From Hyphomicrobiaceae bacterium (GTDB taxonomy: Bacteria > Pseudomonadota > Alphaproteobacteria > Rhizobiales > Hyphomicrobiaceae), in the NCBI GenBank assembly GCA_965223255.1, contig CBDCWA010000004.1:1611514-1675513 (forward strand): a stretch of 64,000 bases of DNA, read 5' to 3'. Positions 4,080-31,427 of this stretch are shown here, piece after piece (within the stretch, counting starts at the first letter, position 1; the number at the start of each line of letters is the position of its first letter). Below the pieces are notes generated by a model. It ran no database searches, was not told the origin of the DNA, and was given only the letters and a program-made list of their open reading frames with translations. The position numbers were made by a program, and so were the translations under genes.

Positions 4080-4787
4080 TTGGTTGATGTGAGGTTGCTT
4101 GTGAGACGCTTACTGCTGGTCGCTCTATCTGTTCTGGCCGTAGCTGGTGTAGTCTATTGGGCGATCGATTCAAATGGACTACAGCGAAGCGCCGTTATAG
4201 AGGATCCGGTCAAGAACTTAGATCGAACGGGGCTGTCAGTCGCAACGTTTGCAGGCGGGTGTTTTTGGTGTGTCGAAGCAGCTTTCGAGGCCGTGCCGGG
4301 CGTTCGCGCGGCAGTATCCGGCTATTCTGGTGGTGTTATTAAGAATCCGACATACAAAATGGTCACGCGCGGCCTGACTAAGCACGCGGAGTCGGTGCAA
4401 GTCTATTACGACCCAACGATAATAACATATAAAGGGTTACTGCAGGTGCTATGGCGCAGCTCTGATCCTACAGACGATCGGGGCCAGTTTTCTGACAGGG
4501 GCAGCCACTACCGGCCAATCATTTTCTATCACGATAAAGAACAGCAGCGCATAGCCATTCGTGCACGTGACGAACTCTCAAAATCTGGACGTTTCAGCAA
4601 ACCGATCAAGGTCGAGATCGTCGCATTCAAAGCATTCTATCCAGCCGAAGCCTATCACCAGGATTATTATCGGAAGAACCCGGGTTACTACCAGATTTAT
4701 AATATAGGGTCAGGCCGGGTCGATTTTCTGACCAAAACATGGGGCGATGATCTCAAGGTCGACTATGCTAAATACCGACCCCAATGA
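4080..4787 (+). CDS. msrA: peptide-methionine (S)-S-oxide reductase MsrA with N-terminal transmembrane anchor
   Basis: It carries the catalytic GGCFWCVEAAFE motif, YHQDYY and overall MsrA collinearity. The first ~30 aa (LLVRRLLLVALSVLAVAGVVYWAI) form a hydrophobic anchor. The start is a non-ATG codon (TTG). Confidence 0.9.
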   Translation: MVDVRLLVRRLLLVALSVLAVAGVVYWAIDSNGLQRSAVIEDPVKNLDRTGLSVATFAGGCFWCVEAAFEAVPGVRAAVSGYSGGVIKNPTYKMVTRGLTKHAESVQVYYDPTIITYKGLLQVLWRSSDPTDDRGQFSDRGSHYRPIIFYHDKEQQRIAIRARDELSKSGRFSKPIKVEIVAFKAFYPAEAYHQDYYRKNPGYYQIYNIGSGRVDFLTKTWGDDLKVDYAKYRPQ

Positions 4788-5147
4788 AATCAGCTAACAG
4801 ATTTCCACCTTTCCCTACGACACGGATTATCAAGGAACGTGGCGCCAATGGATGTGGCGAACAAACGTAACTTGACCAGGTCTCTATTGTTCCGATCGGC
4901 GATCAATCTCGCGCGGCTTTTTTCTTGCACCATTGAAATGCCCCGCCGGCTTTGCGCAGAAATGCGGTCGGACACCGCCCCATATGACAGCGTTTGCCGC
5001 TGTATTGGCTGAACAATTCCGCCTGCAGACCGAGCGCGCTGGCTGCAAGTATATCGTAACGGCCGGTTCTTGGGTGGCACACATATTGCAACAAAATGGT
5101 GGTCTTAACGTAAACCGCTAAGTTAACTGAAAGCTTTGGAGGACGAG

Positions 5148-5618
5148 ATGGGAACATGGTTGATTGATCGCCGCTTGCTGGGGGTTGTCCTTGCCAGCCT
5201 GGTATTGTTGGTCGTGCCTGGTATGAGCGCGCAGGCTAAAAATGAGGCGATGGCCTCTTACCGGGCTTCTATTATGCAGAGTCTGAATGGGCACGTTGCG
5301 GCCATCGGCGCGATTGTCGATGAAAAGGTCGCCTTTAGGCATCACCTCCTTGATCACGCGGTCGCAATCGTTGGCACAAGCCGCGGTTTGCTGGAAATTT
5401 TCCCCGAGAAGGTAAAGAAAAAGACCGCTGAAAAATCCAAGGCGAATGGCAAGAAGTCAAAGTCTTCTCCTTCCTTCGAGGCTCTGGCTACGGAATTCAA
5501 TCTGGCGGCTGCACATTTGGTTCAGGTGATTCCATCGGGGAACAAGGCAGCCATCAAACAACACTTTGCAAAACTGAAAACAGTGTACGGAAAGCTTCAG
5601 GAGCAAACGAAGAAATAG
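5148..5618 (+). CDS. secreted helical protein (four-helix-bundle / cytochrome b562-like guess), Lys-rich insert
   Basis: GGAGGA lies 5-6 nt upstream of the ATG at 5148. The signal peptide ends in SAQA. Helical heptad-like content is present and there is no CxxCH. The function is not established. Confidence 0.55.
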   Translation: MGTWLIDRRLLGVVLASLVLLVVPGMSAQAKNEAMASYRASIMQSLNGHVAAIGAIVDEKVAFRHHLLDHAVAIVGTSRGLLEIFPEKVKKKTAEKSKANGKKSKSSPSFEALATEFNLAAAHLVQVIPSGNKAAIKQHFAKLKTVYGKLQEQTKK

Positions 5619-6305: not shown

Positions 6306-6321
6306 TGGCACAGTCCTTGCA
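6306..6321 (+). promoter_or_regulatory. sigma-54 (-24/-12) promoter TGGCAC-AGTCC-TTGCA
   Basis: This is an exact match to the TGGCAC-N5-TTGCW consensus. It lies ~180 nt upstream of the Gly-Met-X gene and on the same strand. A sigma-54 activator is encoded in the same module. Confidence 0.8.
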
Positions 6322-6498
6322 AGCGGTTAATAGAACGTGATGCATTGGGAACGTTTTGTGAGGCCAGGACGCACAGCTGGGGGGTCTCATGTTCTGTAGT
6401 CAGTCAAGAGGCATCGGATTCGCCGCGGTTGTGAAGACGTGCCGCCAACCGAAGGAGCAGGATTAGCAATGGTAACGTTTCAAAAGGAGTTTGGTCGA

Positions 6499-7425
6499 AT
6501 GCGTGGCTACATGGCCGCGGCCGCGGTTATTGCAGCGGGCGTAATAACGGGTATGAGCAGCTCGGAAAGTACCGCGCAGGGCATGCGTGGCATGTACGGA
6601 ATGCCGGGTATGTACGGCATGGGCGGCATGCGCGGCATGCCTGGTATGGGCGGTATGTACGGCATGGGCGGCATGCGCGGCATGTACGGCATGGGTGGTA
6701 TGCGCGGCATGTACGGCATGGGCGGCGTGCGCGGCATGTACGGCATGGGTGGTATGCGAGGTCCAGCCGGCAGGTGGACTTGGGTGTGGGTGCCAGCTCC
6801 TACAAGCAGAATGAGAGGCATGTACGGTATGTACGGAATGCCGGGCATGTACGGCATGGGTGGCATGCGTGGTATGTACGGCATGTACGGAATGCCGGGT
6901 ATGTACGGCATGGGTGGCATGCGCGGTATGTACGGCATGGGCGGCATGCGCGGTATGTACGGTATGCGGGGCATGCCGGGCATGTACGGCATGGGCGGCA
7001 TGCGCGGTATGTACGGCATGGGCGGCATGCGCGGTATGTACGGTATGCGGGGCATGCCGGGCATGTATGGCATGTATGGAATGCCGGGCATGTACGGCAT
7101 GGGCGGCATGCGCGGTATGTATGGCATGGGCGGTATGCGCGGTATGTACGGTATGCGTGGCATGCCCGGTATGGGTGGCATGTACGGCATGTACGGAATG
7201 CCGGGCTTGTACGGCATGGGCGGCATGCGCGGCATGCGCGGTATGTACGGCATGGGCGGCATGGGCGGTATGTACGGCATGCGCGGAATGCCAGGTATGG
7301 GCGGCATGTATGGCATGCGCGGCATGCCGGGTATGGGCGGTATGCGTGGCATGCCCGGAACGCGAAGCTGGGCTCCTCCGCAACCACCGCAGACTCCGCC
7401 ACCGGCGCAGAAGAAGCCGAGCTAA
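6499..7425 (+). CDS. secreted hyper-methionine (Gly-Met-X)n repeat protein, collagen-like Gly periodicity
   Basis: The track ORF is 6439..7425. I prefer the ATG at 6499 because AAGGAG lies 9 nt upstream; ATG 6469 is an alternative. The signal peptide is MRGYMAAAAVIAAGVITGMSSSESTA/QG. After it come 20 and then 60 G-M-X triplets, followed by a Pro-rich tail. The gene shares strand and operon context with the downstream genes. Confidence 0.7.
   Translation: MRGYMAAAAVIAAGVITGMSSSESTAQGMRGMYGMPGMYGMGGMRGMPGMGGMYGMGGMRGMYGMGGMRGMYGMGGVRGMYGMGGMRGPAGRWTWVWVPAPTSRMRGMYGMYGMPGMYGMGGMRGMYGMYGMPGMYGMGGMRGMYGMGGMRGMYGMRGMPGMYGMGGMRGMYGMGGMRGMYGMRGMPGMYGMYGMPGMYGMGGMRGMYGMGGMRGMYGMRGMPGMGGMYGMYGMPGLYGMGGMRGMRGMYGMGGMGGMYGMRGMPGMGGMYGMRGMPGMGGMRGMPGTRSWAPPQPPQTPPPAQKKPS
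6580..6759 (+). repeat. coding tandem repeat block 1: 20 x 9-nt GGN-ATG-NNN triplet units
   Basis: Hand parse gives GMR GMY GMP GMY GMG GMR GMP GMG GMY GMG GMR GMY GMG GMR GMY GMG GVR GMY GMG GMR. Confidence 0.9.
6817..7356 (+). repeat. coding tandem repeat block 2: 60 x G-M-X units with a higher-order 9-triplet (81-nt) unit
   Basis: 59 of the 60 triplets have Met at position 2 (the exception is GLY). The unit GMG GMR GMY GMG GMR GMY GMR GMP GMY recurs at 6907, 6988 and, as a variant, 7096. Confidence 0.9.
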
Positions 7426-7629
7426 GAGGGCATGGATTTTATGTGATGACAATGTGGGTGCCGGTGGGCAAAGACAGTGCACGCGCACAATGCCCCACCG
7501 GCCTCCGCAAAAACAACCCATCGCATCGTTTCGCTCGTCAACTAACAGCAGTCAAAATCACTTATACCGTGAACCGTTGATTTGATTTTGGGTGCGGTGA
7601 GATTTTCAGAATCTGTGCGGGGGAGGTGA

Positions 7630-8220
7630 ATGTCAGACAGTACTGAGAGCTACAGCGAGGCTGAAGCGTCGTCTCCAATAGAAGAGGCGCGAGCGAAGCC
7701 TATGAAACGAGAAGCATTCAACCAAATTGCTCCGTTTCTTGTCGCTGTCGCAGTCACCGCAGGCATTATAATGGTCTCCGTGGGGGTATCGAAAAAGCAG
7801 CCGGAGCTCGAGCCAGGTCCAAGCAAAGACATCGGCCGACCTGCGGCTCCGCTGTCAAGCGCGAAAGTGCCCGCCGCAAAAGGGCCGGCCGCCACTGCAC
7901 CAAAAGATCCGCAAGTGAGAACGACACCACCAAAGGAGACGGCTTCCCGGCCCTCGAAAGTAGAACCAGTAAAATCCGAATCATCATCGACTGTTAAGAG
8001 TCTTTTTGTCGGCGGTGCAGCACCGAGTAGACGTCCCTCTGATGCTCCGTCGATCAAAGACCTTGCAAAGGACGCCGATTGGTATGCGCGTGCACTTACC
8101 GGCCTCGCAAAGCCCTACCCGCGCAGCTTCAAGTTTTTGGAAGACCAAGGTGCTTGGTATACGCCCTTCAACAAGCGCGGAATGACTGGCCCTTACGACA
8201 TTAGGAGTTGGCATGAATAA
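7630..8220 (+). CDS. single-pass membrane protein with Pro/Ala/Ser/Lys-rich linker and conserved C-terminal module (unassigned)
   Basis: GGGAGG sits upstream of the ATG. The protein has an acidic N-terminus, one TM helix (IAPFLVAVAVTAGIIMVSVGV), a low-complexity linker and a C-terminal ~70 aa paralogous to the C-terminus of the next gene. Confidence 0.7.
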   Translation: MSDSTESYSEAEASSPIEEARAKPMKREAFNQIAPFLVAVAVTAGIIMVSVGVSKKQPELEPGPSKDIGRPAAPLSSAKVPAAKGPAATAPKDPQVRTTPPKETASRPSKVEPVKSESSSTVKSLFVGGAAPSRRPSDAPSIKDLAKDADWYARALTGLAKPYPRSFKFLEDQGAWYTPFNKRGMTGPYDIRSWHE

Positions 8221-9046
8221 GAACACTGGGATGCAACAAATAGCACAGCCATTCACAAATCATGCGTGGCGACCAATGGGCGTCACTGCAATCAAATCCT
8301 TGATTCCAGAAGCGTCGCTCATAGCATCTCTATTGTGGGCAAGTCTGTTCATGATCGGCGTCGCCGACGCGCGCGCTGAAGGCGATATTGAGCAGGGCAA
8401 GAGAGTATTCAGGCTCTGCATCGCCTGCCATAAGATTGGGCCAGGGGCGAGAAACCTGAGCGGGCCAAAACTCAATGGCATTGTTGGCCGAAAGGCCGGC
8501 ACCGTTGAGGGGTTCAAGTATTCTCCCGCCAACAAGAAGGCTGGCGAACAGGGATGGATTTGGACCGAACAGGCATTGGATAAATATTTGGAGAACCCGC
8601 GCAAGGCGATGCCTGGCAATCGGATGGTGTTCATCGGGATAAAAAGCGCGAAGGATAGAAAGAATCTCATCGCTTATCTCAAGTCATTCAAGTCAAGTCA
8701 GCACCGCGGGACGACCAAGACCATGGACGCCGCATCAGCACCGGTCCAGCCGGGGGCTAAAACAAAGCGTTCGGCGAAGGCCGAGCGCGGGGGCAAATCC
8801 CAACCCAAACGGACGACGTCAGTCATATGGGTCGGTGGATCAACCCCGTCCAAACGGCCACCCGCCGCACCGCGCCTGAGAAGCTTCGAGAAGACGCCTG
8901 CCTGGTACCGCCGTGCTCTGGCAGGCCTGTCGAAGCCCTATCCGCCGAGCTTCCGGTTCCTCGAGGATCAAGGTGCTTGGTACACACCATTCAATAGCTC
9001 GGGCATGACAAGCCCTTACGATCTGCGCGCTTGGCATAAAAGTTAG
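8213..9046 (+). CDS. class I c-type cytochrome (c2-like) with N-terminal signal/anchor and the same C-terminal module
   Basis: An ATGAATAA overlap links it to the previous gene. It has a CIACH haem motif and a PGNRMVF distal Met region, typical of c2/c550 cytochromes. Its C-terminus is paralogous to 8002..8217. Confidence 0.8.
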   Translation: MNKNTGMQQIAQPFTNHAWRPMGVTAIKSLIPEASLIASLLWASLFMIGVADARAEGDIEQGKRVFRLCIACHKIGPGARNLSGPKLNGIVGRKAGTVEGFKYSPANKKAGEQGWIWTEQALDKYLENPRKAMPGNRMVFIGIKSAKDRKNLIAYLKSFKSSQHRGTTKTMDAASAPVQPGAKTKRSAKAERGGKSQPKRTTSVIWVGGSTPSKRPPAAPRLRSFEKTPAWYRRALAGLSKPYPPSFRFLEDQGAWYTPFNSSGMTSPYDLRAWHKS

Positions 9047-9116: not shown

Positions 9117-9977
9117 ATGATGCACAGAACGCTAACCTTGGCAGTGAGTTGCCTGTCCGTCGTTCTTGTCACAGGCAGCATTTATTCGTTTGCATGGTCA
9201 GAGAGTGGCACACGCAAGGGCGATTATGCTGCTGCGGTATGGAACAAACTTCATTTCTCACCAGCCATTGATCGCGCAAGAGATGAGCAGTGCCTTTCAT
9301 GCCATAGCGAGATCCTCAAGCAAAAAGTGCGCACCAAGTCTCCCGCCGGGATAAAGGCGAAAGATTCAATTGCTTGGTATCAGGCAATGGATACGTACAC
9401 AGGAGATCAAGAAACGTTTCATTGGCGGCATATTTCTTCGCCTTTTGCAAAGGCTGTCATGAAGCTGTCGTGCAATTTCTGTCACCGTGGACACGATCCG
9501 CGTGAAGAGGCGCCAGGCTCGAGTGCAACCGCACCGCAAATTGGCAAAGCGACTGGGTTTGCCTTGCGCAAGACGGTTGATCCTTCGCAAACGTGCCTCA
9601 AGTGCCATGGCAGCTTTCCCTATAAGATCATGCAATTGCCGGGACCTTGGCACGAAGTGCGACCGTTAATGGAGTCACCGGAAATAAAAAACGGCTGCCT
9701 AGGCGCTTGTCACAAGGTAGCATTCCGCACCAATCGCCATAACGTGACCTATCTCAATCGCGACAAGATAGAGGAATTGTCCAAGGACAACTCGGACACG
9801 TGCTTTGGCTGTCATGGCGGAAGGGCATGGTACCGGAATTCCTACCCTTATCCGCGAAATCCCTGGCCCGGCATGGACAAAGAGATTCCAAAGTGGGCCA
9901 AGGATAGGCCCACCCAATCCGAAGCGCGCTTTCGCATTGGCGACAAACAAGGCGCCGCGGCTGGCAAGACGAAATAG
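9117..9977 (+). CDS. multihaem c-type cytochrome (4 CxxCH + 1 CxxxCH)
   Basis: The motifs are CLSCH, CNFCH, CLKCH, CFGCH and the variant CLGACH. The N-terminal hydrophobic segment could be a signal peptide or an anchor. A NapC/TorC-like quinol-dehydrogenase role is only a guess. Confidence 0.8.
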   Translation: MMHRTLTLAVSCLSVVLVTGSIYSFAWSESGTRKGDYAAAVWNKLHFSPAIDRARDEQCLSCHSEILKQKVRTKSPAGIKAKDSIAWYQAMDTYTGDQETFHWRHISSPFAKAVMKLSCNFCHRGHDPREEAPGSSATAPQIGKATGFALRKTVDPSQTCLKCHGSFPYKIMQLPGPWHEVRPLMESPEIKNGCLGACHKVAFRTNRHNVTYLNRDKIEELSKDNSDTCFGCHGGRAWYRNSYPYPRNPWPGMDKEIPKWAKDRPTQSEARFRIGDKQGAAAGKTK

Positions 9978-10012: not shown

Positions 10013-12547
10013 ATGAGTGTGAAGATTGACGTCCTCAGATCAGCTTTAAACCTGACGCGCCGCCGTTTCGTGCAACTGTCGGCGGCAAGTGCAGCCGCCG
10101 GTGCGGCAGGGCTTAAGCCGGAGCAGGCACAGGCGTTCGCCTATGAACCATATCCGACTGACGACGAGCTGACGACGATAGTAACAAGCTGCGCGCATAA
10201 TTGCGGATCGCGTCACGCACTCGTTGCACACAAGAAAGGTGATGTAATTGTCAGGCTGTCATCGGATGACGGACGCTATCAGAAGGATGGAGAATACGGC
10301 AAGGATACAGAGGACGAGCCGCAGGTGCGCGCCTGTCTGCGCGGACGGTCGTATCGTTCGCGGCTCTACTCGGCAGAGCGCCTGCTCCATCCCATGATTC
10401 GGGTCGGAGCGCGCGGTGAAGGGAAATTCAAACGCGCCTCCTGGGATACGGCGTTGGACTACATTGCCGAGCGCATAGTGAACATTAAGAATACCTATGG
10501 GCCAACTGCAATCCTGGACCAAAGCTATGCCGGCGCCTCATGGGGCGTCTTGCATCGCTCGGATCAGATCGAGGGGCTATTAGGGCGCTTTCTCGGCATT
10601 TTCGGTTGCCGCACGACGTCCTGGTCCGTGCCTTCGTATCAGGGAACGACTTTTTCGTCAGAAACGACCTTTGGCACGATTGAGGATGGAAATGAGGATG
10701 ATACGTTTGCCCACTCCAAGCTGATGATCATGTGGGGCTGGAATCCGGCCTACACATTTCATGGCGGCAATACATTCTACTATATGCGACTTGCAAAGCA
10801 GCGCGGATGCAAATTTGTCTTGGTGGACCCGCAATACACAGATTCAGCGGCCTCCTATGATGCCTGGTGGATTCCAATTCGGCCTAATACGGATGCGGCA
10901 ATGCTCGCGGCAATGGCCCACTATATCTTTGTCAACAAACTTCAAGATCAGAGCTTCATCAATCGCTTCTGCCTTGGCATGGACGCGGGCACAATGCCGG
11001 CATTCGCCACCGACCAGGAAAATTTCAGAGACTACATTCTTGGCAGGTATGACGGTCAACCTAAGTCTCCGGAATGGGCGCAAGAGATCTGTGGTGTAAA
11101 GGCCGATGACATCAAGAAGCTCGCGCGGATGTATGCGACGACAAAGCCAGCGGCATTGAAAGCAAGCTGGGCGCCAGGGCGATGCGCATACGGCGAACAG
11201 TATAGCAGGATGGCCGCGGCCCTTCAGGCAATGACCGGAAACATCGGTGTCTTGGGCGGCAGTGCTGAAGGCGTCGGCAAGGCCTGGAAAGCACAGGCTG
11301 CTGCGGGACCGGTAGATCAATACGCCAACATACATGCCGCTGCGATCAAGTCAGATAGATGGGCCGACTGCGTCCTTAATTACCCAAATGTGCGCCGCGA
11401 AGATGTCGGCTTGTGGCCGAAGTCGGGCGCCATGGATGGGGTAATACCGAATATTCGAGCGATTTGGTGGCAAGCGTCCGACTGGTTTAACCAGCTCCCC
11501 AACATCAACAAACAAATAGAAGCGATCCAAAAGCTTGATCTCGTCGTCTGCCAAGATTCGACCATTACGCCATCTGGGATATGGGCCGATGTGCTTCTGC
11601 CGGTTGCTACCCACTTCGAGCGCCACGATGTGGCCCTGCCTTGGTACAAGGGCCACTACTATATTCATAGGCCGAAGGTGATCGAGCCGCTTGGAGAAAG
11701 CAAGACCGACTGGCAGATTTTCACCGAGCTCGCGTTCCGACTCGGATTTGGCAAGACCATGAATCCACTTGCCTCCCGCGACTATTTCCACAACGATGAT
11801 GCGACCGACGAGGCGTATCTCAGGGATTGGTGGGAAAAGCGCGTCATGGGGTATCAAGGAGTTACGATGCCCTGGGATGAGTTCAAGAAACGCGGCATCT
11901 ACAAATTCCGACTGGACAAGCCCCATGTTGCCTTTCGCGAGCAGATTGAGGAGGGCAAACCATTCAAGACCACCTCCGGCAAGATCGAGATATTCTCTAT
12001 CAAACTATCGAACATTAAGGACTTTCGCCAAACGCAGTTTGGTTATCCTATCCCCGCAATCCCAAAATGGATTGAGCCATGGGAAGGCAGGCGCGATCCA
12101 AAGGTGCGCCAATATCCATTCCAGATGATCACGCCACACCCACGTTGGCGAACGCACTCAATATTCAACAACATCGGGTGGCTTCGGGAGACCTATGAGC
12201 AGGAAGTGACAATCAATGCGGACGATGCCGAGAAGCTCGGCATTAAGACAGGGGACAACGTCTACATCTGGAATGAGCGAGGCGCGACGGTGACACCAGC
12301 CTATGTGACACAACGACTGATGCCGGGCGTCGTTGTGCTTTACGAAGGCGCTTGGATGGATCGGGACACAAAGGGTATCGACCGGTCCGGCAATCCGGAT
12401 TTCCTGACCCTGGATGCGCCCAGCCCTGCAGGGGCATTTGCATACAATACGCTGTTGGTAAACATGCAGAAGACCGATCTGCCGCATCGACCCGGCTGGG
12501 ACAAGCTCGCAACGGCACGCAGCCACGTCTTCCGGCGTGACAATTGA
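10013..12547 (+). CDS. Tat-exported molybdopterin oxidoreductase catalytic subunit, DMSO reductase family (DmsA-like)
   Basis: GGAGG RBS. The twin-arginine motif is TRRRFVQLSAASAAAGA. The N-terminal FS0-type motif is C-AHN-C-GSR-H ... QVRACLRGRS. As far as I recall E. coli DmsA, the protein is collinear with it (e.g. RVGARGEGKFKRASW). Length is 844 aa. Confidence 0.85.
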   Translation: MSVKIDVLRSALNLTRRRFVQLSAASAAAGAAGLKPEQAQAFAYEPYPTDDELTTIVTSCAHNCGSRHALVAHKKGDVIVRLSSDDGRYQKDGEYGKDTEDEPQVRACLRGRSYRSRLYSAERLLHPMIRVGARGEGKFKRASWDTALDYIAERIVNIKNTYGPTAILDQSYAGASWGVLHRSDQIEGLLGRFLGIFGCRTTSWSVPSYQGTTFSSETTFGTIEDGNEDDTFAHSKLMIMWGWNPAYTFHGGNTFYYMRLAKQRGCKFVLVDPQYTDSAASYDAWWIPIRPNTDAAMLAAMAHYIFVNKLQDQSFINRFCLGMDAGTMPAFATDQENFRDYILGRYDGQPKSPEWAQEICGVKADDIKKLARMYATTKPAALKASWAPGRCAYGEQYSRMAAALQAMTGNIGVLGGSAEGVGKAWKAQAAAGPVDQYANIHAAAIKSDRWADCVLNYPNVRREDVGLWPKSGAMDGVIPNIRAIWWQASDWFNQLPNINKQIEAIQKLDLVVCQDSTITPSGIWADVLLPVATHFERHDVALPWYKGHYYIHRPKVIEPLGESKTDWQIFTELAFRLGFGKTMNPLASRDYFHNDDATDEAYLRDWWEKRVMGYQGVTMPWDEFKKRGIYKFRLDKPHVAFREQIEEGKPFKTTSGKIEIFSIKLSNIKDFRQTQFGYPIPAIPKWIEPWEGRRDPKVRQYPFQMITPHPRWRTHSIFNNIGWLRETYEQEVTINADDAEKLGIKTGDNVYIWNERGATVTPAYVTQRLMPGVVVLYEGAWMDRDTKGIDRSGNPDFLTLDAPSPAGAFAYNTLLVNMQKTDLPHRPGWDKLATARSHVFRRDN

Positions 12548-13233
12548 TGATTGGGGACACAGATATGGCAAAGGCGCCGATTGACAAGAAGAAGATAAAG
12601 AACGCGGTAAAACGCAAGAAACAAGACGTTTACAAGCCAGTGGTTCCCCACCAACAGCTCGGGTTTATCCATAACAATGTCGATTGTATCGGGTGCAGGG
12701 CTTGCGAGATTGCTTGTAAGGATAAGAATGGGTTAGCACCCGGACCAAGATTCCGCAGAGTACAATATATCGAGGGTGGCACATATCCCGAGGTGTTTGC
12801 ATACAAGGTAAATATGTCGTGCAATCACTGCGCTGAACCTGCCTGCCTTCCCGCCTGTCCCACCGGCGCGATCTACAAACGGAAAAAGGATGGTATTGTC
12901 GACATTGACTCGACGTTGTGCATCGGATGCCGGCGCTGCGAGGCCACATGCCCCTACGGCGCACCGCAATACATCCCTGATCAAAATATCGTTTCTAAGT
13001 GTAATATGTGCGTGGATGAGATTGATGCCGGTCGTAAGCCCTATTGCGTGATGGCCTGCATGATGCGCGTGCTCGATATTGGTCCGATAGACAAATTGCG
13101 TGATGGGACTTGGGACACTAAAGCCAAGGCAAAGCAGGAGAAAGTTGTACGTCAGGTGCAGAATATGGCGGATCCGGAGCTAACCAATCCATCGATCGTA
13201 TTCGTCGCGCATAGCAAGGGCAAAGTGAAATAG
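12544..13233 (+). CDS. 4x[4Fe-4S] ferredoxin-type electron-transfer subunit (DmsB-like)
   Basis: Four Cys clusters are present (CIGCRACEIAC, CNHCAEPACLPACP, CIGCRRCEATCP, CNMCVDE...CVMAC). The start overlaps the stop of the A subunit (TTG 12544 / ATG 12547). ATG 12565 with a GGGGA RBS is an alternative start. Confidence 0.85.
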   Translation: MMIGDTDMAKAPIDKKKIKNAVKRKKQDVYKPVVPHQQLGFIHNNVDCIGCRACEIACKDKNGLAPGPRFRRVQYIEGGTYPEVFAYKVNMSCNHCAEPACLPACPTGAIYKRKKDGIVDIDSTLCIGCRRCEATCPYGAPQYIPDQNIVSKCNMCVDEIDAGRKPYCVMACMMRVLDIGPIDKLRDGTWDTKAKAKQEKVVRQVQNMADPELTNPSIVFVAHSKGKVK

Positions 13234-13302: not shown

Positions 13303-14130
13303 GTGCACAAACCTATCAGAGGTGCCCACCATGCTGGCCCTAGCCAGCATGCAGGGCGGGAGAATTCATTCGTGCAAGACCATGGACAAAGCGAAGCTGA
13401 ACTTCTTGCTGCTTTCAGAGAGTCGGTCGATGATGACCTGAAGTTGATTGCAGCACTGCACGATCGCGAGATCGATGCACCTGCGATCGCGCAGCTCAAA
13501 CAACTGAGGTTTCCCAGTGGCCTCGGTTTTAATCTGTCAAAGTCGGCAGCGAAACAAGCCCAACGACAAATGATCGATGCTCTTGCGGATCTGCCGGATG
13601 TACCCGATCAAGCGCTTCTCGATGAACTCGCCGTCGATTTTGCAGCAATCTATCTGACCTATCGCTACCGGGCCGCGCCAACGGAATCCGTGTGGCTCGA
13701 TAAGGACCATCTCGAGCGCCAGCAACCTATGTTTCAGACCCGAGCCGCCTACCGCCGAAGAGGTCTGAAGGTCGTCAACTGGAACGTGAGGTCTGAAGAT
13801 CACCTGGTCACTCAACTGCTTTTTGTGGCGCATTTGATTGGCGAATGTCGCGACGAAGTGGCGCTAGCGGATGCTGCAGCGTTCCTTGACCAGCACTTGC
13901 TCCGTTGGATTGACATCTTCGCCTTGAGTGTAGCGCAACGTTGCAGCGCTCGTTTTTATAGCGCCCTCGGCTCGCTGACAGCTGCCTATTTGGACGAGCT
14001 GCGCGATGTTCTCGCAGAGATCCTGGATGAACCGCGACCCCAAATCGTAACAGCCGATCAGATTCTGCAGCCACCCGACGAAGCCGAGCAGCACACTCCA
14101 ATCGCACCGGCCGTTGGTCCAAGCTGGTGA
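13303..14130 (+). CDS. TorD/DmsD-family redox enzyme maturation chaperone
   Basis: The EDHL-type motif (SEDHLVTQLLFVAHL) and helical layout are typical of the TorD family. It sits immediately after the A and B subunits. The GTG start is uncertain. Confidence 0.65.
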   Translation: MHKPIRGAHHAGPSQHAGRENSFVQDHGQSEAELLAAFRESVDDDLKLIAALHDREIDAPAIAQLKQLRFPSGLGFNLSKSAAKQAQRQMIDALADLPDVPDQALLDELAVDFAAIYLTYRYRAAPTESVWLDKDHLERQQPMFQTRAAYRRRGLKVVNWNVRSEDHLVTQLLFVAHLIGECRDEVALADAAAFLDQHLLRWIDIFALSVAQRCSARFYSALGSLTAAYLDELRDVLAEILDEPRPQIVTADQILQPPDEAEQHTPIAPAVGPSW

Positions 14131-14151: not shown

Positions 14152-15534
14152 TTAGTCGCTGCGTTCACTAACGCTAAGTCCATGCTTCTTGAGCAACCTG
14201 TACGTGTTGCGCTCGCTTATTCCCAATACTTCAGCAATCCGCGAGCGATGTCCGCCGTATTTTACGACCAATCTAGCCAGGTAATCTCGCCGGATTTCCT
14301 CTAACGTTGGCTCGTGATCAAACATGAACGCCGCCGTTTCACAACGAGACGACTGAGCGCTGGGTGGAGCACTCAACCCCAGGTGCCGTGCTCGGATAGT
14401 AACGTCGTCGCCAGATACCAGGATTGCCCGCTCTATGACGTTTCTAAGCTCGCGAACATTGCCTGGCCATGAGTATGCGGTAAGCACCTCAATGGCATCC
14501 TTGCTCAATATCTTCTGCCGGGCGCGCTGAAAAGATCTGGTATCCAAAAACAGCTCTGACAGCACCGCGATGTCCTCGCGCCGCTGTCGCAGCGGTGGTA
14601 CACTGATCACAACTGTAGCCAAGCGATAGTAAAGGTCAGATCGAAATCGTCCCTCGTCGATGGATGCTATAAGGTCACGATTAGTTGCAGCGACGATGCG
14701 CGCGTCACTGATTATCTTCTGGGTGCCGCCGACGCGCCGAAATTCTCCGGTCTCAAGCACGCGCAGTAGTTTTGCCTGCATCGACGCAGGCAATTCGCCG
14801 ATTTCGTCAAGGAACAGTGTTCCGCCCTCGGCAATTTCGATCAAGCCCTGCTTGCGCCGGTCCGCTCCTGTAAATGCCCCTTTCTCGTGACCAAACAACT
14901 CCGATTCGAACAGCGTCTCTTGTAATGTCGTTGCATCCACAGGCACAAAGTTGGAATCCGCACGATCGCTCAGCTGGTGAATGGCTTTTGCTACAAGCTC
15001 CTTGCCGACGCCACTTTCGCCCTCGATTAGAACCGTTGAATCGCTTGGTGCGACCAACTCAATAAGATGTGCCATTTCCTCAAAAGCATTGCTCCGTCCA
15101 ACCATAATCTTCTTGATGTTGGGATTTAGTTGTTCTCGGCAATACTGGTAGCTGCGCCTCAAGGAGCTGTTTTCCAATGCTCGGCCAATAGCAAACTCCA
15201 GTTCGGACGGATTGATCGGTTTCGTCAGATAGTCAACCGCACCAGACCGGATAGCTTCGACTGCATGCCGAATGCTTCCGTACGCCGTCAGAACGAGCAC
15301 AGGGCATTGAGCTGAAAGTTCCGGCAAACACTGGATACCATCGATGTCGGGAAGTCTGATATCGAGGAGAGCAAGAGCGGGATCATGAGTCTCCAGCGTC
15401 ACCTTGGCTTCCTCCCATGAATAGACGCCAGTTGGCTGATAGCCCATCGCCCGCAGTTGTTCGATCAGAAAATGATTAAGTGCCTTGTCGTCCTCTATGA
15501 CAAGAAGATGCTTACCTTTCTTTCTTTGCGTCAT
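14152..15534 (-). CDS. sigma-54-dependent response regulator (NtrC family enhancer-binding protein)
   Basis: It has a receiver domain (LDIRLPDIDG), an AAA+ Walker A (GESGVGKE), the GAFTGA sigma-54 contact loop and a C-terminal Fis-type HTH. Confidence 0.9.
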   Translation of the reverse strand: MTQRKKGKHLLVIEDDKALNHFLIEQLRAMGYQPTGVYSWEEAKVTLETHDPALALLDIRLPDIDGIQCLPELSAQCPVLVLTAYGSIRHAVEAIRSGAVDYLTKPINPSELEFAIGRALENSSLRRSYQYCREQLNPNIKKIMVGRSNAFEEMAHLIELVAPSDSTVLIEGESGVGKELVAKAIHQLSDRADSNFVPVDATTLQETLFESELFGHEKGAFTGADRRKQGLIEIAEGGTLFLDEIGELPASMQAKLLRVLETGEFRRVGGTQKIISDARIVAATNRDLIASIDEGRFRSDLYYRLATVVISVPPLRQRREDIAVLSELFLDTRSFQRARQKILSKDAIEVLTAYSWPGNVRELRNVIERAILVSGDDVTIRARHLGLSAPPSAQSSRCETAAFMFDHEPTLEEIRRDYLARLVVKYGGHRSRIAEVLGISERNTYRLLKKHGLSVSERSD

Positions 15535-17435
15535 GATAGTTCTTTCGCTACTTCTGCAGAAGGCAATGTGACAACGAATCTAGTCCCCTCACCAACCACG
15601 CTCGTCACATCTAACCTGCCGCCGCTTCGTTTGACTATTTCTTGGCATATTGAAAGCCCAAGCCCTGTTCCGTGAACGCCGTCGGCACGTTTACTCCAGA
15701 AGGGATCGAATATTTTGGCGAGATCGCTCTTCTTGATCCCCACGCCAGTGTCCTCAAAGACCAGCTCGACCACATCTTCGCAGACTGAGCCCGAAACCAG
15801 CAGGCGCCCGCCATCAGGCATGGCATGCAGAGCGTTCTGTGCGATGTTTAGCACCATCATTCTCATCTCGCTGTCGGAGCCGATTGATCTGAGTTCACTC
15901 TCAAGATCCATCGATATGTCGACCTCTGACTTCAGTGCCTCAGCGTTGAGTAGGGAGAGAACCTCGAACACGACGTTGTTGAGATTTACAAGTTCGCGGT
16001 GCTCGCTTGCTGGTGCGCTAAGCTTCAAAAGACGCGACGTAACTTCTATGCAGCGCGTTATCTGATCTTCGATAATGTCAAGATACTTGCTTGCCTTCTC
16101 GTCCCGACCCTCCCGTAGAGCTCTTTTCGCTGAGTCGAAGCCCAAAAGTATGGACGCAAGAGGGTTGTGAATCTCGTGTGCAACACCCGCGGCCAGGAAG
16201 CCAATTTCCGACAGCCGCTGCTCTTGCGATAGCCGCACGTCCTTGCTCAGGTCTCTAATGACCTCCACAACGAATTTTTTTTGCGTGTCGTCAATAGTGA
16301 TTTCAAGCAGCGCTGCTGAGACCTCGACCGGGATTTCTTTCTCATCGGCGCTCACATGAGAATGCCGACAAGTCAAGACCTGCCCTCCTTTCTGCAGTTC
16401 ATGCAGCGGACAGCTGACCAAGCTCGCTGGGCAAGGCGATTCACGAGAATGGCTGGACCAATAGCAGGGTCGCTGTACCACCTCAGACCGCGCGCGATGC
16501 TGTTGTTCGCAGAATGCGCGGTTAGCCTTGACGACCTGATAGTTCATGTCGATCACGCGCACTCCATCGGGCATTATGTCGATCAGGTCCTGCAAATACC
16601 GCTCTCTGGTCTCTATATTGTGTACAGCTTGAGCGATACGAGCGGACATGTCGTTAAAGGCACGTCCAAGCCGCCCAATCTCATCGGAGCTTTTTAGCGG
16701 CACACGGTGACCCAGTTGGCCCAGCGACATCTTATCCGCTGCCTCGGTCAGTCCTTTCACAGGTGCGAGCACGAACCAGTTAAGCAGAAATCCGATGCCA
16801 CCAATGGTAGTCAGCACGACTGCTATTCCGGCACCACTCAGCATCAATACTGCAAACATTGTGTCGCGTCTGATGTTCGTTGCGTCATAGTCAACGACGA
16901 GAATTCCGTTTATTGGGTGGGTATCAATCTGGCCATGGCATTTAGTGCATGGGCCGCGGTTGCGGACCGGGTTTATGCTGCGCAGAATGTCACCAGCAAC
17001 GGCGTCCGCAACGAAGGCCGAACGGGGCCCGTGCCCTTTTATTGTTGCCTTGCAGTCTGGGCACAACTCACCTGCTTCGAGATCAAAACGTCGGCCAAGC
17101 TGTATCTTGTTGCTCGCAAATCTGACTTCACCATTCGGCGCAAGAATCATGACACCGGAAATATTCTCCTGTTCACCCAATCGTTCGACCATTTTCCTCA
17201 GGCCAACGATGTCACGATTGAGCATCGCATTCTCAAGCCCCAGCTGCAGCAGGCGGTTGACCTCCGTGGATGCTGCGCTGCGTTCCCTCAGGATTTGATC
17301 ACGATAGGAGAGAATGACCAACGCAAGGAAACAGATCGATGCAAACGTTAGGCTTGCGACAAGGATCAGGGTTATTTTCCGCCTTAGGCTTGCAGCAGAC
17401 CACCTGGCTAGGTCATTCCATAACTGTCCCATCAT
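15531..17435 (-). CDS. sensor histidine kinase: periplasmic Cys/haem-motif domain, HAMP, PAS, HisKA, HATPase
   Basis: Two TM helices flank a ~150-aa loop containing CPDCK and CTKCH. It also has a HAMP domain, a Cys-rich PAS-like domain, the H-box GVAHEIHNPL, and G-boxes DTGVGI and GTGLGLS. There are 4-nt overlaps with both neighbouring genes. Confidence 0.9.
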   Translation of the reverse strand: MMGQLWNDLARWSAASLRRKITLILVASLTFASICFLALVILSYRDQILRERSAASTEVNRLLQLGLENAMLNRDIVGLRKMVERLGEQENISGVMILAPNGEVRFASNKIQLGRRFDLEAGELCPDCKATIKGHGPRSAFVADAVAGDILRSINPVRNRGPCTKCHGQIDTHPINGILVVDYDATNIRRDTMFAVLMLSGAGIAVVLTTIGGIGFLLNWFVLAPVKGLTEAADKMSLGQLGHRVPLKSSDEIGRLGRAFNDMSARIAQAVHNIETRERYLQDLIDIMPDGVRVIDMNYQVVKANRAFCEQQHRARSEVVQRPCYWSSHSRESPCPASLVSCPLHELQKGGQVLTCRHSHVSADEKEIPVEVSAALLEITIDDTQKKFVVEVIRDLSKDVRLSQEQRLSEIGFLAAGVAHEIHNPLASILLGFDSAKRALREGRDEKASKYLDIIEDQITRCIEVTSRLLKLSAPASEHRELVNLNNVVFEVLSLLNAEALKSEVDISMDLESELRSIGSDSEMRMMVLNIAQNALHAMPDGGRLLVSGSVCEDVVELVFEDTGVGIKKSDLAKIFDPFWSKRADGVHGTGLGLSICQEIVKRSGGRLDVTSVVGEGTRFVVTLPSAEVAKELS

Positions 17436-17908
17436 TGCGATGCCAGCCGAATGATAAAGCTCTCAGTAGGAACAAGATCCGTATCAATCCGGCAAAGCCT
17501 TTCGGTTTGGTCAGCAAGATCATCCTGGAAGACGGTGATCGGAACGACGACCGGCACCAGCCATTCCCGCGCAGCAAATGCCTTAAGCCAGTCCCGCCGC
17601 TCCTCAGAGGCCTTTGTCGCGAGAATGGATTCCGCGTTATGCACAACGAGCCCGCCACGATTCGATTTCTTTTCGATGTACGCGGTCAGAGCCGATAGTG
17701 GAACCTGGCCGGCCTCCCATCCCAGGGGGAGAAGTTTTTCCGCCCGAAAGTCTATGAAGGTGAAGTCAAGAGCATTCGTCATGGCGCGTATTAACTCTGG
17801 CCGGTACTCGGGAAAAACGACGAAGAAACCTCCACGTCCAGCAGCCTGGGCAATCATCTCGGCAACCGGCCTTATCCAAGGTAATAGAGGCTCTCGAGAC
17901 TGCATCAT
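17432..17908 (-). CDS. hypothetical protein co-transcribed with the kinase
   Basis: The track ORF starts at 17962. I prefer ATG 17908 because it forms an ATGA start/stop overlap with the upstream ferredoxin gene. The stop overlaps the kinase start. I recognised no motif. Confidence 0.55.
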   Translation of the reverse strand: MMQSREPLLPWIRPVAEMIAQAAGRGGFFVVFPEYRPELIRAMTNALDFTFIDFRAEKLLPLGWEAGQVPLSALTAYIEKKSNRGGLVVHNAESILATKASEERRDWLKAFAAREWLVPVVVPITVFQDDLADQTERLCRIDTDLVPTESFIIRLASQ

Positions 17909-18993
17909 CGCAACACTTGAAACAGTTTGTCGTAATGCTGCGTCTTCAGGCAGATCCGACATCGCAACTCGGCCGATCCCTGGCTCTCAGGCATCAAAAA
18001 CACAGTTCCGCACGAGCGGCATTGCGCAGAATCAAGTTGAATGGATGTCGGGTCGCCGCGCTGCCAGGACTTGACGGCGACTGCATCAGTATCACAAACG
18101 TCAGCGCACAGCCTGCAGCCGGTGCAATGTGACGGAGCGATCTTGTAGGCGGGCCGGCCCGCGTGATCAGTCACAAGTGTGATTGCATGAGTTGGGCATA
18201 TGCGAATACAGGCATTGCACCCGACGCAGTTCGCAGTATCAATTTCGGGAAGATAGGGGTTCAAAGGCATCCCGCTTTCGCCGGCTGGAAGTCGCTCCGC
18301 TGCCGGAACCTGACGTTGTGTCTTCAAGTTGGAATCCACGTCCACCAACCTGCTAACGGCCACAAAAAAACCGCGCCGGGATGCACGCATCGTTGTTGAA
18401 CGTATAGTATGCCATTCGCCAGGTGTGTACTCAGTGATGCTGAATTCATCCATGCCTCGGTCCGCCCAGAGACGTTGGAGGTTGATAACCGCTTGATCAA
18501 ACTGATGACTCAAACCACGCTCGCAGCTCAGGCATGCTTCGCGGCTCACGATCAGCTGTCGCAAACCTTGTGCATATAGTTGAGCCAGTTCATCTATTCC
18601 GATCGAATTCAGGCAAGGTCGTACACCAGGTCCACCTTCTTCGACGGCGACGGAACAGGCAAACAGTCCAATCTTGTCATCGTCATAAGATCTCGCAGCG
18701 TTGGCCAGTGGCAATTCAATCGCAGTCTGCGGGCAGACCGGCACACAGATGCCACATCCATCGCAAGCTTGTTCGTCAAATCCGAGAGCATCCTCCTCTA
18801 AGACCCACGCGGCACGTGGACAAGCATCAACGCAGTCTTGGCAACTAGCGTTGGACACGATCGCATGAACGCAACGATCAGCATCAATAACTGGAAGGTC
18901 TGCGGGCAGATGCGACAGCTTATCGCTTCGCGGAAGGGCAAAGCTGCGTCCTGGCAACCCAGACTCAGTCGTGTCCGAACGATTCTTCGACAT
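17905..18993 (-). CDS. polyferredoxin-like protein (two 2x[4Fe-4S] dicluster domains + C-terminal CxxC...CxxC ribbon)
   Basis: Motifs are CQDCVDACP, CDGCGICVPVCP, CVGCNACIRICP, CTGCRLCADVCD, and CRSCG...CRIC. Start is either ATG 18993 (MSKNRS) or the upstream start at 19083. Confidence 0.75.
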   Translation of the reverse strand: MSKNRSDTTESGLPGRSFALPRSDKLSHLPADLPVIDADRCVHAIVSNASCQDCVDACPRAAWVLEEDALGFDEQACDGCGICVPVCPQTAIELPLANAARSYDDDKIGLFACSVAVEEGGPGVRPCLNSIGIDELAQLYAQGLRQLIVSREACLSCERGLSHQFDQAVINLQRLWADRGMDEFSITEYTPGEWHTIRSTTMRASRRGFFVAVSRLVDVDSNLKTQRQVPAAERLPAGESGMPLNPYLPEIDTANCVGCNACIRICPTHAITLVTDHAGRPAYKIAPSHCTGCRLCADVCDTDAVAVKSWQRGDPTSIQLDSAQCRSCGTVFLMPESQGSAELRCRICLKTQHYDKLFQVLR

Positions 18994-19148
18994 CACGTTA
19001 TCGCTTCCGGCGCCCGGTTGCCCTCGCTCGCGCTCGCTGCGCGCACCTACTCGCGTGGCAGCCGACCCGGCGGGCACGGGCACTTCCGACGATTATGAAA
19101 GACAGCTATTCCAACCCGAGAAACAGCCGCCACGACACGCTGTCGTGA

Positions 19149-19164
19149 TGCAACTCCTGTGCCA
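19149..19164 (-). promoter_or_regulatory. sigma-54 (-24/-12) promoter TGGCAC-AGGAG-TTGCA (minus strand)
   Basis: This is an exact consensus match on the minus strand. It lies 66-156 nt upstream of the polyferredoxin start candidates. Confidence 0.8.
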
Positions 19165-28300: not shown

Positions 28301-28301
28301 T

Positions 28302-28679
28302 CTAAGCCCTCCCCGCTTCCAGAAGCTTGGCCTTGAACTGGTCTACGCTCATACCCGTCTGCTGTGCGCCGATGTCCTGGACGTTGAGGCCGAATATCCC
28401 CGCCAGCTTGGCCAGATAGTAGATATTGCCGCCGGCCTCGATCATCCTGAGAACATTTCTGCTGCGAACGGCTTCGCGTTGTTCATCGGTCAGGCCAAAT
28501 TTTGCGCAATAGGCATCCTCATCATCGAGGAAGGCCTGACGATTTTCCGCGCTATTAAAAGAAAAGCACATCTTGTTAAGCGCATATCCTTTCTGCGCCT
28601 GGTCCCCATCGAAGAGGGTGGTGCCGGGTATCTGTTGATCTGCCATCTCGTCCATCCGTGTATTCCGATCTCCGGTCAT
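28302..28679 (-). CDS. extradiol dioxygenase alpha subunit (LigA-like, second copy)
   Basis: GYALNKMCFSF...GGNIYYLAKL parallels the LigA copy at 34867..35268. The start is uncertain (28679 or 28727). Confidence 0.75.
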   Translation of the reverse strand: MTGDRNTRMDEMADQQIPGTTLFDGDQAQKGYALNKMCFSFNSAENRQAFLDDEDAYCAKFGLTDEQREAVRSRNVLRMIEAGGNIYYLAKLAGIFGLNVQDIGAQQTGMSVDQFKAKLLEAGRA

Positions 28680-31400: not shown

Positions 31401-31427
31401 AATATCCTGACCAACCAAGCGGCCGGA

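Follow-up and report, generated by a model that had tools for sequence, protein, structure and literature searches.

A secreted Gly-Met-X repeat protein encoded with a DmsAB-type molybdoenzyme: a candidate renewable methionine sink of the bacterial periplasm

What use could a bacterium have for a secreted protein in which nearly every one of 80 triplets reads Gly-Met-X? The question is raised by a gene at positions 6499..7425 of a 64,000-nucleotide stretch of a Hyphomicrobiaceae genome (GenBank assembly GCA_965223255.1, contig CBDCWA010000004.1, positions 1,611,514 to 1,675,513 of the forward strand), and it is this whole stretch that we refer to as the window. A first-pass annotation had presented the product as collagen-like and had offered a sacrificial oxidant sink, a soft-metal ligand array or a structural fibre as its possible roles. 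In every related locus long enough to show it, we find the Gly-Met gene in the same operon as genes for a DmsA-like molybdopterin enzyme, a DmsB-type subunit, a TorD-type chaperone and a multihaem cytochrome. The reading we favour, which we regard as an even call and whose chemistry we infer, is that the protein serves as a renewable periplasmic methionine sink, re-reduced by the co-encoded DmsAB-like S-oxide reductase. The parts of the gene and its immediate surroundings are as follows.

6499..7425, plus strand: gene for the Gly-Met-X repeat protein (translated open reading frame (ORF), precursor of 308 amino acids, mature protein of ~281)
6484..6489, plus strand: Shine-Dalgarno sequence AAGGAG, 9 nt 5' of the ATG at 6499 (direct reading)
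6499..6579, plus strand: signal-peptide-like N-terminus MRGYMAAAAVIAAGVITGMSSSESTAQ, amino acids 1-27, a hydrophobic core followed by a small-residue c-region (judged by sequence inspection)
6580..6759, plus strand: repeat block 1, 20 G-[M/V]-X triplets (translation)
6760..6816, plus strand: aromatic interruption GPAGRWTWVWVPAPTSRMR, 19 amino acids, with the family motif G-x-W-V-W-V-P
6817..7356, plus strand: repeat block 2, 60 unbroken G-[M/L]-X triplets (translation), with 27-nt and 81-nt higher-order units
7357..7422, plus strand: Pro-rich tail GTRSWAPPQPPQTPPPAQKKPS, 22 amino acids, followed by the stop (translation)
7369..7380, plus strand: C-terminal W-A-P-P (family motif W-x-P-P) inside the Pro-rich tail (translation)
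7453..7508, plus strand: stable stem-loop just past the stop, with no T-run (minimum free energy -44.9 kcal/mol for 7426..7540, z = -2.3)

The architecture given by the first-pass annotation (signal peptide, 20 triplets, interruption, 60 triplets, tail) proved exact to the residue on translation, and its hand counts were reproduced exactly: Met stands at position 2 in 78 of the 80 triplets, the exceptions being one Val and one Leu, and position 3 is occupied by Tyr (28), Arg (21), Gly (19) or Pro (12). The mature protein is 28% Met (26.6% in the precursor) and 36% Gly, with an isoelectric point of about 10.7; only 9% of its residues are charged, all of them basic (27 basic, 0 acidic). At the DNA level the repeat has a period of 27 nt in 26 copies (Tandem Repeats Finder). 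The 81-nt units reported at 6907, 6988 and 7096 are real, with 97.5% identity between the first two and 89-91% between each of these and the third, and the proposed growth by repeat expansion is upheld. An alternative ATG at 6469, also preceded by GAAGGAG, leaves the start uncertain by 10 codons. The stem-loop past the stop, which was not called as an intrinsic terminator, may act as a transcript stabiliser or attenuator and may shift transcript levels in favour of the Gly-Met gene over the genes downstream.

In a repeat of this kind the reading frame itself has to be established. Four of the other five frames are likewise open across the repeat, so that ORF length is no evidence for this frame. 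Two of the alternatives are long antisense ORFs, at 6463..7521 (minus strand, 352 amino acids) and 6507..7352 (minus strand, 281 amino acids), His/Ala-rich and Pro/Met/Ile-rich; both are side effects of the composition of the repeat, and gene callers could be misled by them. The open frames would also fit a tandem repeat without coding function, or a gene read from the opposite strand or in a different frame, but the variation among the repeat copies is compatible with this frame only. Across the 80 nine-base units, base diversity reaches 0.51 at the wobble position of the Gly codon (C 50, T 24, A 6) and is at most 0.05 at both G bases of that codon and at all three bases of the ATG, the pattern expected, in this frame, when copies diverge at silent sites and retain Gly and Met. 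In addition, a ribosome-binding site and a signal peptide are present, the stop comes directly after the conserved W-x-P-P end, and the position in the operon is conserved.

It is the orthologues that settle the frame. More than 50 orthologous loci hold it, with lengths that differ by multiples of 3, and in those whose DmsA neighbours are more than 85% identical the repeat numbers vary while the frame and the end motifs are kept. Thus locus L125, whose DmsA falls in the same 90% cluster, encodes a Gly-Met protein of 305 amino acids with a signal peptide, GPRGHWVWVPA as the interruption and GWQPPRS at the end; its repeat blocks have about 48 and 37 triplets, compared with 20 and 60 in the window, and the same Tyr/Gly/Pro/Arg third positions. 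In L126 (DmsA 89% identical) the interruption is GPAGNWAWVWVPS and the C-terminal end GWSPPRG. Frameshifts or stops in homologous loci had been named in the first-pass annotation as signs of a non-coding repeat, and we find that the orthologues stay in frame. We conclude that 6499..7425 is a genuine protein-coding gene and assign the non-coding and other-frame readings a practically negligible probability. The protein collection contains its neighbours from this genome but not the Gly-Met protein itself, for which three candidate starts were tried.

The protein is one of a family. A scan of 185,579 species-representative genomes with the pattern (GGN ATG NNN)x7 GGN ATG returned at least 120 loci, and about 27 secreted Gly-Met proteins of one architecture are among the matches listed, each with a signal peptide at the front, (Gly-Met-X)n broken by one to three aromatic interruptions, and W-x-P-P or G-W-R at the C-terminal end. 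A comparable signal peptide was recognised by inspection at the start of all full-length relatives. The interruptions are of the types G-x-W-V-W-V-P, G-Y-F-x-I-T-P-x-G-Q-I-F-F-Y-P and G-W-V-C-T-Q-W-T, the W-V-W-V-P form recurring in L125, L126, L072 and L013 (GQWVWVPS), L098 (GTWVWVPDQ) and P0005, and nearly all complete relatives carry the W-x-P-P end (for example TWTPP, GWSPPR, SWEPPS, GWQPPR and GWAPPK). Among the hosts are Thiodiazotropha clam symbionts, a Lamellibrachia tubeworm symbiont, Sedimenticola, Chromatiaceae, Hyphomicrobium, Phyllobacteriaceae and Rhodobacterales, a list extended by later look-ups to Candidatus Competibacter denitrificans, a Sterolibacteriaceae genome and the isolate Jhaorihella thermophila. 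Most other Gly-Met matches of the scan are unrelated, namely C-terminal tails in GroEL and Ffh/SRP54, planctomycete proteins and an insert in a CopA protein. Among the matches set aside are also two loci in Chlorobiaceae / Chlorobaculum metagenome-assembled genomes (L046 and L007) with long (GMD/GMA)n and (DRM)n repeats, for which we recognised neither a signal peptide nor nearby module genes and whose coding status is doubtful.

Across family members from Alpha-, Beta- and Gammaproteobacteria, Met is 97-100% conserved at position 2 while position 3 is variable (S, G, N, D, Q, A, Y, R or P), with Ser or Gly in most members; there is therefore selection on Gly and Met. The combination Tyr/Arg/Pro at position 3 was seen in the window and L125 only, among the tabulated genome-derived loci, and Tyr and Pro occur there in L126 and in metagenome contigs of the Tyr/Pro type as well. 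A metagenome scan for GMYGMPGMYGM yielded 39 further contigs of this Tyr/Pro subtype, most of them family members, and 25 of the 39 bear at least one gene of the module described below on the same short contig. None of the Gly-Met relatives has a name or a curated family in Pfam or NCBIfam, where the only profile matches are to collagen, and a phmmer search with the protein returned Gly-Met repeat proteins only. The uniqueness implied by the first-pass annotation does not hold, since the pattern scans that it had itself proposed uncovered dozens of such proteins in public genomes, all of which are nevertheless unannotated.

Some members of the family show how the repeat and the interruptions vary. 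In two near-identical Ectothiorhodospiraceae assemblies the called Gly-Met genes encode 105 (L123, 10436..10753) and 145 amino acids (L124, 10352..10789), both in frame, with 26 and 30 repeat triplets after trimming of the ORFs, and the difference is either a true repeat-number polymorphism or a collapse of the repeat in assembly. A Sterolibacteriaceae metagenome-assembled genome (L128, 6425..7069) carries (GMS GMS GME GQK)n, in which Gln-Lys triplets regularly replace Met with the Gly period intact and Glu/Lys pairs appear; it is the one relative with a more collagen-like composition. Finally, secreted proteins without Gly-Met repeats are encoded in or beside the module at L126 1871..2356 and L124 9114..9647 and have aromatic hairpin-like motifs such as GYFEVSPGGSLIFYPTW, GHYQVGSDRKVRFFLPPG, GSRYYFPVPP and DGWVTLIPPG, which suggests that the interruption motif may be a module of its own.

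The genes that accompany the repeat protein bear on its function. In the window they are the following.

7630..8220, plus strand: membrane-anchored protein with a conserved C-terminal domain of ~75 amino acids at 7987..8217 (tblastn)
8213..9046, plus strand: class I cytochrome c that carries, as a fusion, a second copy of the 75-amino-acid domain, at 8830..9043 (Pfam Cytochrom_C, NCBIfam c-550-like)
9117..9977, plus strand: membrane-anchored multihaem c-type cytochrome with four CXXCH and one CXXXCH (CLGACH) motifs and an N-terminal hydrophobic segment (Pfam multihaem families)
10013..12547, plus strand: catalytic subunit of a DmsA-like molybdopterin S-/N-oxide reductase with a TRRRF twin-arginine motif, predicted to be exported by twin-arginine translocation (Tat) (TIGR02166)
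12544..13233, plus strand: DmsB-type four-cluster Fe-S subunit (TIGR02951, 197 bits; Pfam Fer4_11)
13303..14130, plus strand: TorD/DmsD-type maturation chaperone (Pfam Nitrate_red_del, NCBIfam TorD)
17905..19083, minus strand: polyferredoxin, syntenic in L030, L032, L102 and L121-L128
17432..19164, minus strand: an ORF of 176 amino acids, the polyferredoxin gene and their promoter-like site (ORF listing, Pfam)

The order of this module is conserved, as judged by tblastn and from the fetched loci: a small secreted protein with the 75-amino-acid domain, the Gly-Met protein, in some loci a class I cytochrome c, the multihaem cytochrome, the DmsA-like enzyme, DmsB, the TorD-type protein and polyferredoxin. 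Identities between the window proteins and those of related loci are 47-64% for the multihaem cytochrome, 68-81% for the DmsA-like enzyme and 75-87% for DmsB (tblastn). In the window the order is a cytochrome c'-fold protein, the Gly-Met gene, the anchored 75-amino-acid-domain protein, the cytochrome c fusion, the multihaem cytochrome, dmsA, dmsB and torD, with polyferredoxin, the ORF of 176 amino acids, a kinase and a response regulator on the opposite strand. Beyond the module the flanks differ between genomes, as seen in extended loci of 20 kb, and the module thus behaves as a self-contained unit. Orthologues of the multihaem cytochrome lie directly upstream of dmsA in related loci, and relatives show faint matches to NapC/NirT; this cytochrome is probably the electron donor to the reductase and a likely link to the quinol pool.

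TIGR02166 dmsA_ynfE is the best NCBIfam model for the partner enzyme and aligns over its full length at 615 bits, below the curated cutoff of 777.7; among solved structures, the best-scoring relatives are DorA of Rhodobacter (245 bits) and TorZ/MtsZ of Haemophilus (7l5i, 237 bits), MtsZ being a methionine sulfoxide reductase. In a pairwise HMMER alignment to DorA (1eu1), the molybdenum ligand Ser147 and Tyr114 are matched by Ser and Tyr, and Trp116 is not matched by Trp. By its sequence the enzyme is a member of the S-/N-oxide reductase group. Within it, the enzyme belongs to a clade that takes in at least 120 clusters (identity 74% or above), labelled 'molybdopterin oxidoreductase' or 'anaerobic DMSO reductase subunit A' (DMSO, dimethyl sulfoxide), of which our literature search returned no characterised member. 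In comparison with DmsABC, DorA and MtsZ, whose group has members that reduce methionine sulfoxide, free or within proteins, it is of the same S-/N-oxide reductase group and shares the Ser ligand to molybdenum, Tat export, a DmsB-type subunit and a TorD-type chaperone, but it forms a clade of its own, no DmsC membrane anchor was seen with it, and multihaem and class I cytochromes c as well as the Gly-Met and 75-amino-acid-domain proteins are encoded alongside.

Regulatory features point to the same unit, namely three promoter-like sites and a two-component system.

5075..5089, plus strand: sigma-54 promoter-like site before the c'-fold gene (exact TGGCAC-N5-TTGC)
6306..6320, plus strand: sigma-54 promoter-like site of the -24/-12 type, TGGCACAGTCCTTGC, some 180 nt upstream of the Gly-Met gene (exact TGGCAC-N5-TTGC)
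19150..19164, minus strand: sigma-54 promoter-like site before the polyferredoxin-kinase-regulator operon (exact TGGCAC-N5-TTGC)
14152..15534, minus strand: sigma-54-dependent response regulator (Pfam), syntenic with the kinase in related loci
15531..17435, minus strand: sensor histidine kinase with a CXXCH motif in its periplasmic domain, amino acids about 45-200 (Pfam)

Exact matches to TGGCAC-N5-TTGC number three in the 64-kb window against 0.29 expected, and all three front units of the module. In related loci, sites with at least 9 of 10 consensus bases lie 124-194 nt upstream of the region coding for the small-protein domain in 16 of 38 cases, compared with 4.4% of control segments. We found no convincing sigma-70-like promoter or intrinsic terminator around the Gly-Met gene. 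The kinase and the sigma-54-dependent response regulator adjoin the module in related loci, and all 14 full-length orthologues of the kinase keep its periplasmic CXXCH, which points to a sensor of redox state or of a ligand that works through haem and would drive the sigma-54 activator. The Gly-Met protein would then be made on demand together with a periplasmic enzyme of the S-oxide-reductase type.

How might such a pair work? The protein is predicted to be exported by the general secretory (Sec) route and is probably flexible and rich in polyproline II (PPII) helix, with PPII-rich disorder as its most likely conformation. The feature that would bear the function is a very dense array of solvent-exposed Met thioethers, kept accessible by a Gly at each third residue. 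Periplasmic oxidants (hypohalous acids, chloramines, peroxides) would turn the Met side chains into methionine sulfoxide, and in the Tyr/Arg/Pro lineage Tyr side chains may be oxidised too; in this way the protein would spare essential envelope proteins. The Tat-exported DmsAB-type enzyme would re-reduce the sulfoxides with electrons delivered through the multihaem cytochrome.

There are direct precedents for such a scheme in the literature. MrpX is a periplasmic Met-rich protein that is oxidised by hypochlorous acid (HOCl) and recycled by the molybdenum enzyme YedY/MsrP of the same operon (PMC4436054), DorA reduces protein-bound methionine sulfoxide (PMC7402097), and DmsABC, which HOCl induces, reduces methionine sulfoxide and helps cells to survive chlorine stress (PMC11024254, PMC12096835). 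We rate the methionine sink best because of these MrpX/MsrP, DorA and DmsABC precedents and because a maximal density of exposed Met is encoded with a reductase. The sacrificial oxidant sink that the first-pass annotation listed among its possible roles gains strong contextual support, from the conserved DmsAB-type operon and, in the Tyr/Arg/Pro lineage, from an adjacent gene for an exported MsrA.

The comparison with MrpX, which is encoded with YedYZ (MsrPQ) in Azospira suillum PS (Melnyk et al. 2015, PMC4436054), deserves to be drawn out. Like MrpX, the Gly-Met protein has a signal-like N-terminus and a Met content above ~20% and is encoded in an operon with a periplasmic molybdenum enzyme of the sulfoxide-reducing type; each system is under a dedicated stress or respiratory regulator, and the proposed logic of sacrificial Met and regeneration is the same. 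There are also differences. MrpX is small, with about 20% Met and 44% charged residues and without a Gly-Met-X period, whereas the Gly-Met protein has 36% Gly and 9% charged residues. The partner of MrpX is MsrP/YedY, of the sulfite-oxidase fold, with YedZ, and that of the Gly-Met protein is a DmsAB-type enzyme of the bis-molybdopterin guanine dinucleotide class with c-type cytochromes; MrpX is regulated by SigF/NrsF and the Gly-Met module, by prediction, by a sigma-54 two-component system. No sequence relationship between the two proteins was found, phmmer having given only Gly-Met proteins and MrpX having been compared by its published description (PMC4436054).

A second repair route may exist in the Tyr/Arg/Pro lineage.

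4080..4787, plus strand: MsrA, a peptide-methionine (S)-S-oxide reductase with a GCFWC active site and, at its N-terminus, a hydrophobic segment for export or anchoring (Pfam PMSR, 197.7 bits; TIGR00401)

This gene lies 1.7 kb upstream of the Gly-Met gene, and an exported MsrA is also encoded within a few kb of the module in L125 and L126 despite their other arrangements, that is, in three of three genomes of the lineage and in three gene orders.

Several points weigh against the methionine sink. That methionine sulfoxide is the substrate of this DmsA clade is a prediction. The three genomes with linked MsrA are related, hence not independent, and linkage beyond the Tyr/Arg/Pro lineage was looked for and not found, MsrA being missing from six extended loci of Ser/Gly-type lineages. 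The strict Gly period is kept in L128 where GQK triplets replace Met, a hint that structure imposes a demand of which a simple Met sponge would be free. Finally, the aromatic interruptions, the W-x-P-P end and the 75-amino-acid partner domain are unexplained by a pure scavenger. As these features and the Gly period sit badly with a plain sponge, we leave room for a docking or scaffold role.

In such a role the Gly-Met protein would be an accessory subunit whose chain, interruptions and W-x-P-P end dock on the 75-amino-acid domain, and it would tether the cytochromes and DmsAB or shield the enzyme from the reactive product of a substrate other than a sulfoxide, for example a halogen oxyanion. 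On this view, redox cycling of Met by the enzyme would not be its purpose. The domain makes this worth considering. A gene for it adjoins the Gly-Met gene in essentially every locus (beside it in 17 genome loci at 49-75% identity by tblastn), usually as a small secreted protein. In the window it occurs twice, on a membrane anchor and fused to cytochrome c, the C-terminal 70 amino acids of the 8213..9046 product aligning with the domain of the 7630..8220 product, and the fusion recurs in L126. Conservation of the domain is strong (22 invariant columns, 271 representative clusters), and its core motif is W-Y-x-R-A-L-T-G-x3-P-Y-P-x-S-L-R-F-L-E-D-Q-G-A-W-Y-T-P-F-x2-P-G-M-T-G-P-Y-D-I-R-G-W-H; the domain has no match in Pfam, NCBIfam or the PDB, and 96 clusters are all labelled 'hypothetical'. 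The non-repeat motifs of the Gly-Met protein, too, are conserved across classes, and the Gly period persists through the GQK triplets of L128.

On the other hand, a scaffold explains neither the invariance of Met in particular, next to a free position 3, nor the linkage to MsrA, and the structure model of the domain, built from 31 sequences, is of low confidence (pLDDT 62). Nor was a gene for chlorite dismutase or another halogen-oxyanion function seen in the window, where ORFs at positions 274-50,850 were scanned, or in the extended related loci; this scope also applies to the copper and silver genes below. A (per)chlorate/chlorite system was set aside for lack of chlorite dismutase (Cld) and of a type II Pcr/Clr-like enzyme in the same regions, and ClrA groups have been described only together with Cld (2022 paper). 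We give the scaffold reading a modest chance.

The thioether array invites a different explanation, namely a periplasmic buffer for Cu(I) or Ag(I). Each Gly-Met-X-Gly-Met unit forms an M-x-x-M motif, continuous through both blocks, and tandem arrays of this kind also occur in Met-rich inserts of CopA/PcoA multicopper oxidases and in the Mets motifs of copper transporters. The same genome scan recovered, in Diaphorobacter (L071), a multicopper oxidase of the CopA type into which (GMT)n is inserted, so that Gly-Met triplets are used in a known copper protein, and copper induces several molybdenum enzymes of E. coli (PMC12096835). However, the CopA/PcoA-type segments are inserts in copper enzymes or transporters in cop/pco/cus loci, whereas the Gly-Met family is without an accompanying copper gene: we found neither a cop, pco, cus or sil gene nor a metal-sensing regulator in the window or the extended loci. 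Moreover, the invariant partner is an enzyme of the S-oxide-reductase type, not a copper oxidase or efflux pump, and the repeats have no His, Cys or Asp co-ligands. The soft-metal array of the first-pass annotation thus stands as chemically plausible, given its M-x-x-M arrays, but lacks a copper or silver gene near any locus examined, and we attach a low probability to it.

The headline of the first-pass annotation was a collagen-like fibre, and we also considered a triple helix with Met in X, perhaps nucleated by the aromatic interruption. The 60 unbroken Gly-X-Y triplets, the 21 triplets with Arg in Y and a Pfam Collagen match of 75.5 bits (cutoff 27.2), with collagen chains as the top sequence matches in the PDB, are in its favour, as is the persistence of the Gly period in L128 where Met is lost; the interruptions of relatives that are beta-hairpin-like (GYFKITPQGQIFFYPA) or contain Cys (GWVCTQWT) could, we infer, be oligomerisation knots. 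Nevertheless, the Pfam and PDB matches arise because of Gly periodicity alone, and the NCBIfam Scl/Lcl scores of 57-76 bits are far under their cutoffs of 325-500. Pro fills only 12 of the 160 X/Y positions (7.5%), there are no acidic residues for ion pairs, and Y is Tyr or Gly in 47 of the 80 triplets. Tyr and Gly in the Y position are poor triple-helix formers in host-guest data. Most relatives are (GMS/GMG)n without Pro or charge. A trimerisation domain is also missing, as Pfam and NCBIfam return no other domain and the protein consists outside its repeats of a signal peptide, the 19-residue interruption and the 22-residue tail.

Known bacterial collagen-like proteins (Scl1/Scl2, Lcl and BclA, PF01391) resemble the Gly-Met protein in being secreted and in having unbroken Gly-X-Y over tens of triplets. 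In contrast to them, it has Met in X in 97% of triplets, very low Pro and no acidic residues, it lacks a globular trimerisation domain or cell-wall anchor, and its operon context is respiratory or redox, not that of an envelope protein or adhesin. AlphaFold2 left the monomer unstructured (pLDDT 45), although a monomer run is uninformative on trimers. The C-terminal (GGM)n tails of GroEL/Hsp60 are likewise Gly/Met-only repeats, but they are 13-residue tails of a cytoplasmic chaperonin in a GGM and not a GMX register; by circular dichroism, nuclear magnetic resonance and molecular dynamics they populate PPII helix as single chains (PMC12571646), which also speaks against a triple helix. The collagen headline, with Gly periodicity as its sole basis, is therefore not sustained, and we hold a triple-helical fibre to be quite improbable.

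In a bolder form of the proposal, to which we assign a fairly low probability, the Gly-Met family would be a redox-active periplasmic polymer whose thioether/sulfoxide pool is the physiological substrate of a dedicated DmsAB clade, coupling oxidant detoxification to the quinol pool, possibly in a Met-lined assembly of PPII or collagen-like type for which the aromatic motifs serve as nuclei and W-x-P-P as the dock to the 75-amino-acid domain. If this were true, cells would in effect respire oxidants through a protein shuttle.

Two further regions of the window complete the picture.

5136..5618, plus strand: cytochrome c'-fold four-helix protein without any Cys (Pfam Cytochrom_C_2, 43.8 bits; no CXXCH)

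Since it is without cysteine, this protein cannot bind haem c covalently. A c'-fold homologue neighbours the Gly-Met gene in L125 and in the metagenome contigs L134-L136, L144, L156 and L161. The region 27440..50850 holds an aromatic-compound degradation cluster and a polysaccharide-synthesis cluster, unrelated to the Gly-Met module; the former comprises two LigB-type extradiol dioxygenases, a flavin-dependent (FAD) aromatic hydroxylase, a LigXa-like Rieske oxygenase, an amidohydrolase and a MarR regulator.

The idea of pairing a Met-rich scavenger in the periplasm with a molybdenum reductase is already known from MrpX/MsrP. What appear to be undescribed are the Gly-Met family and its architecture, the DmsAB-type partner clade, the 75-amino-acid domain and the regulation through sigma-54 and a haem-motif sensor; our literature search found nothing specific on Gly-Met or Met-rich periplasmic repeat proteins of this kind. 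On a practical matter, three conserved components without annotation, namely the Gly-Met protein, the 75-amino-acid domain and the haem-motif sensor kinase, can now be flagged for annotation, and protein chemists are offered a natural Gly-Met-X polymer of 60 triplets in which to compare PPII with triple-helix behaviour.

If the methionine sink is correct, the module would represent a second, unrelated and far more extreme route to periplasmic oxidant scavenging than MrpX/MsrP, and it would provide the first plausible physiological substrate for a large uncharacterised DmsA-like clade. That clade occurs in the sulfur-oxidising Thiodiazotropha and tubeworm symbionts, in Sedimenticola, Competibacter and Hyphomicrobium, and in marine Rhodobacterales. 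A passage in a preprint places "DMSO reductase" genes among the most highly expressed in lucinid symbionts (bioRxiv 10.64898/2025.12.05.692423, citing Petersen 2016). Should the genes meant in that passage be those of this module, their role may be the handling of oxidative stress in the host and not DMSO respiration.

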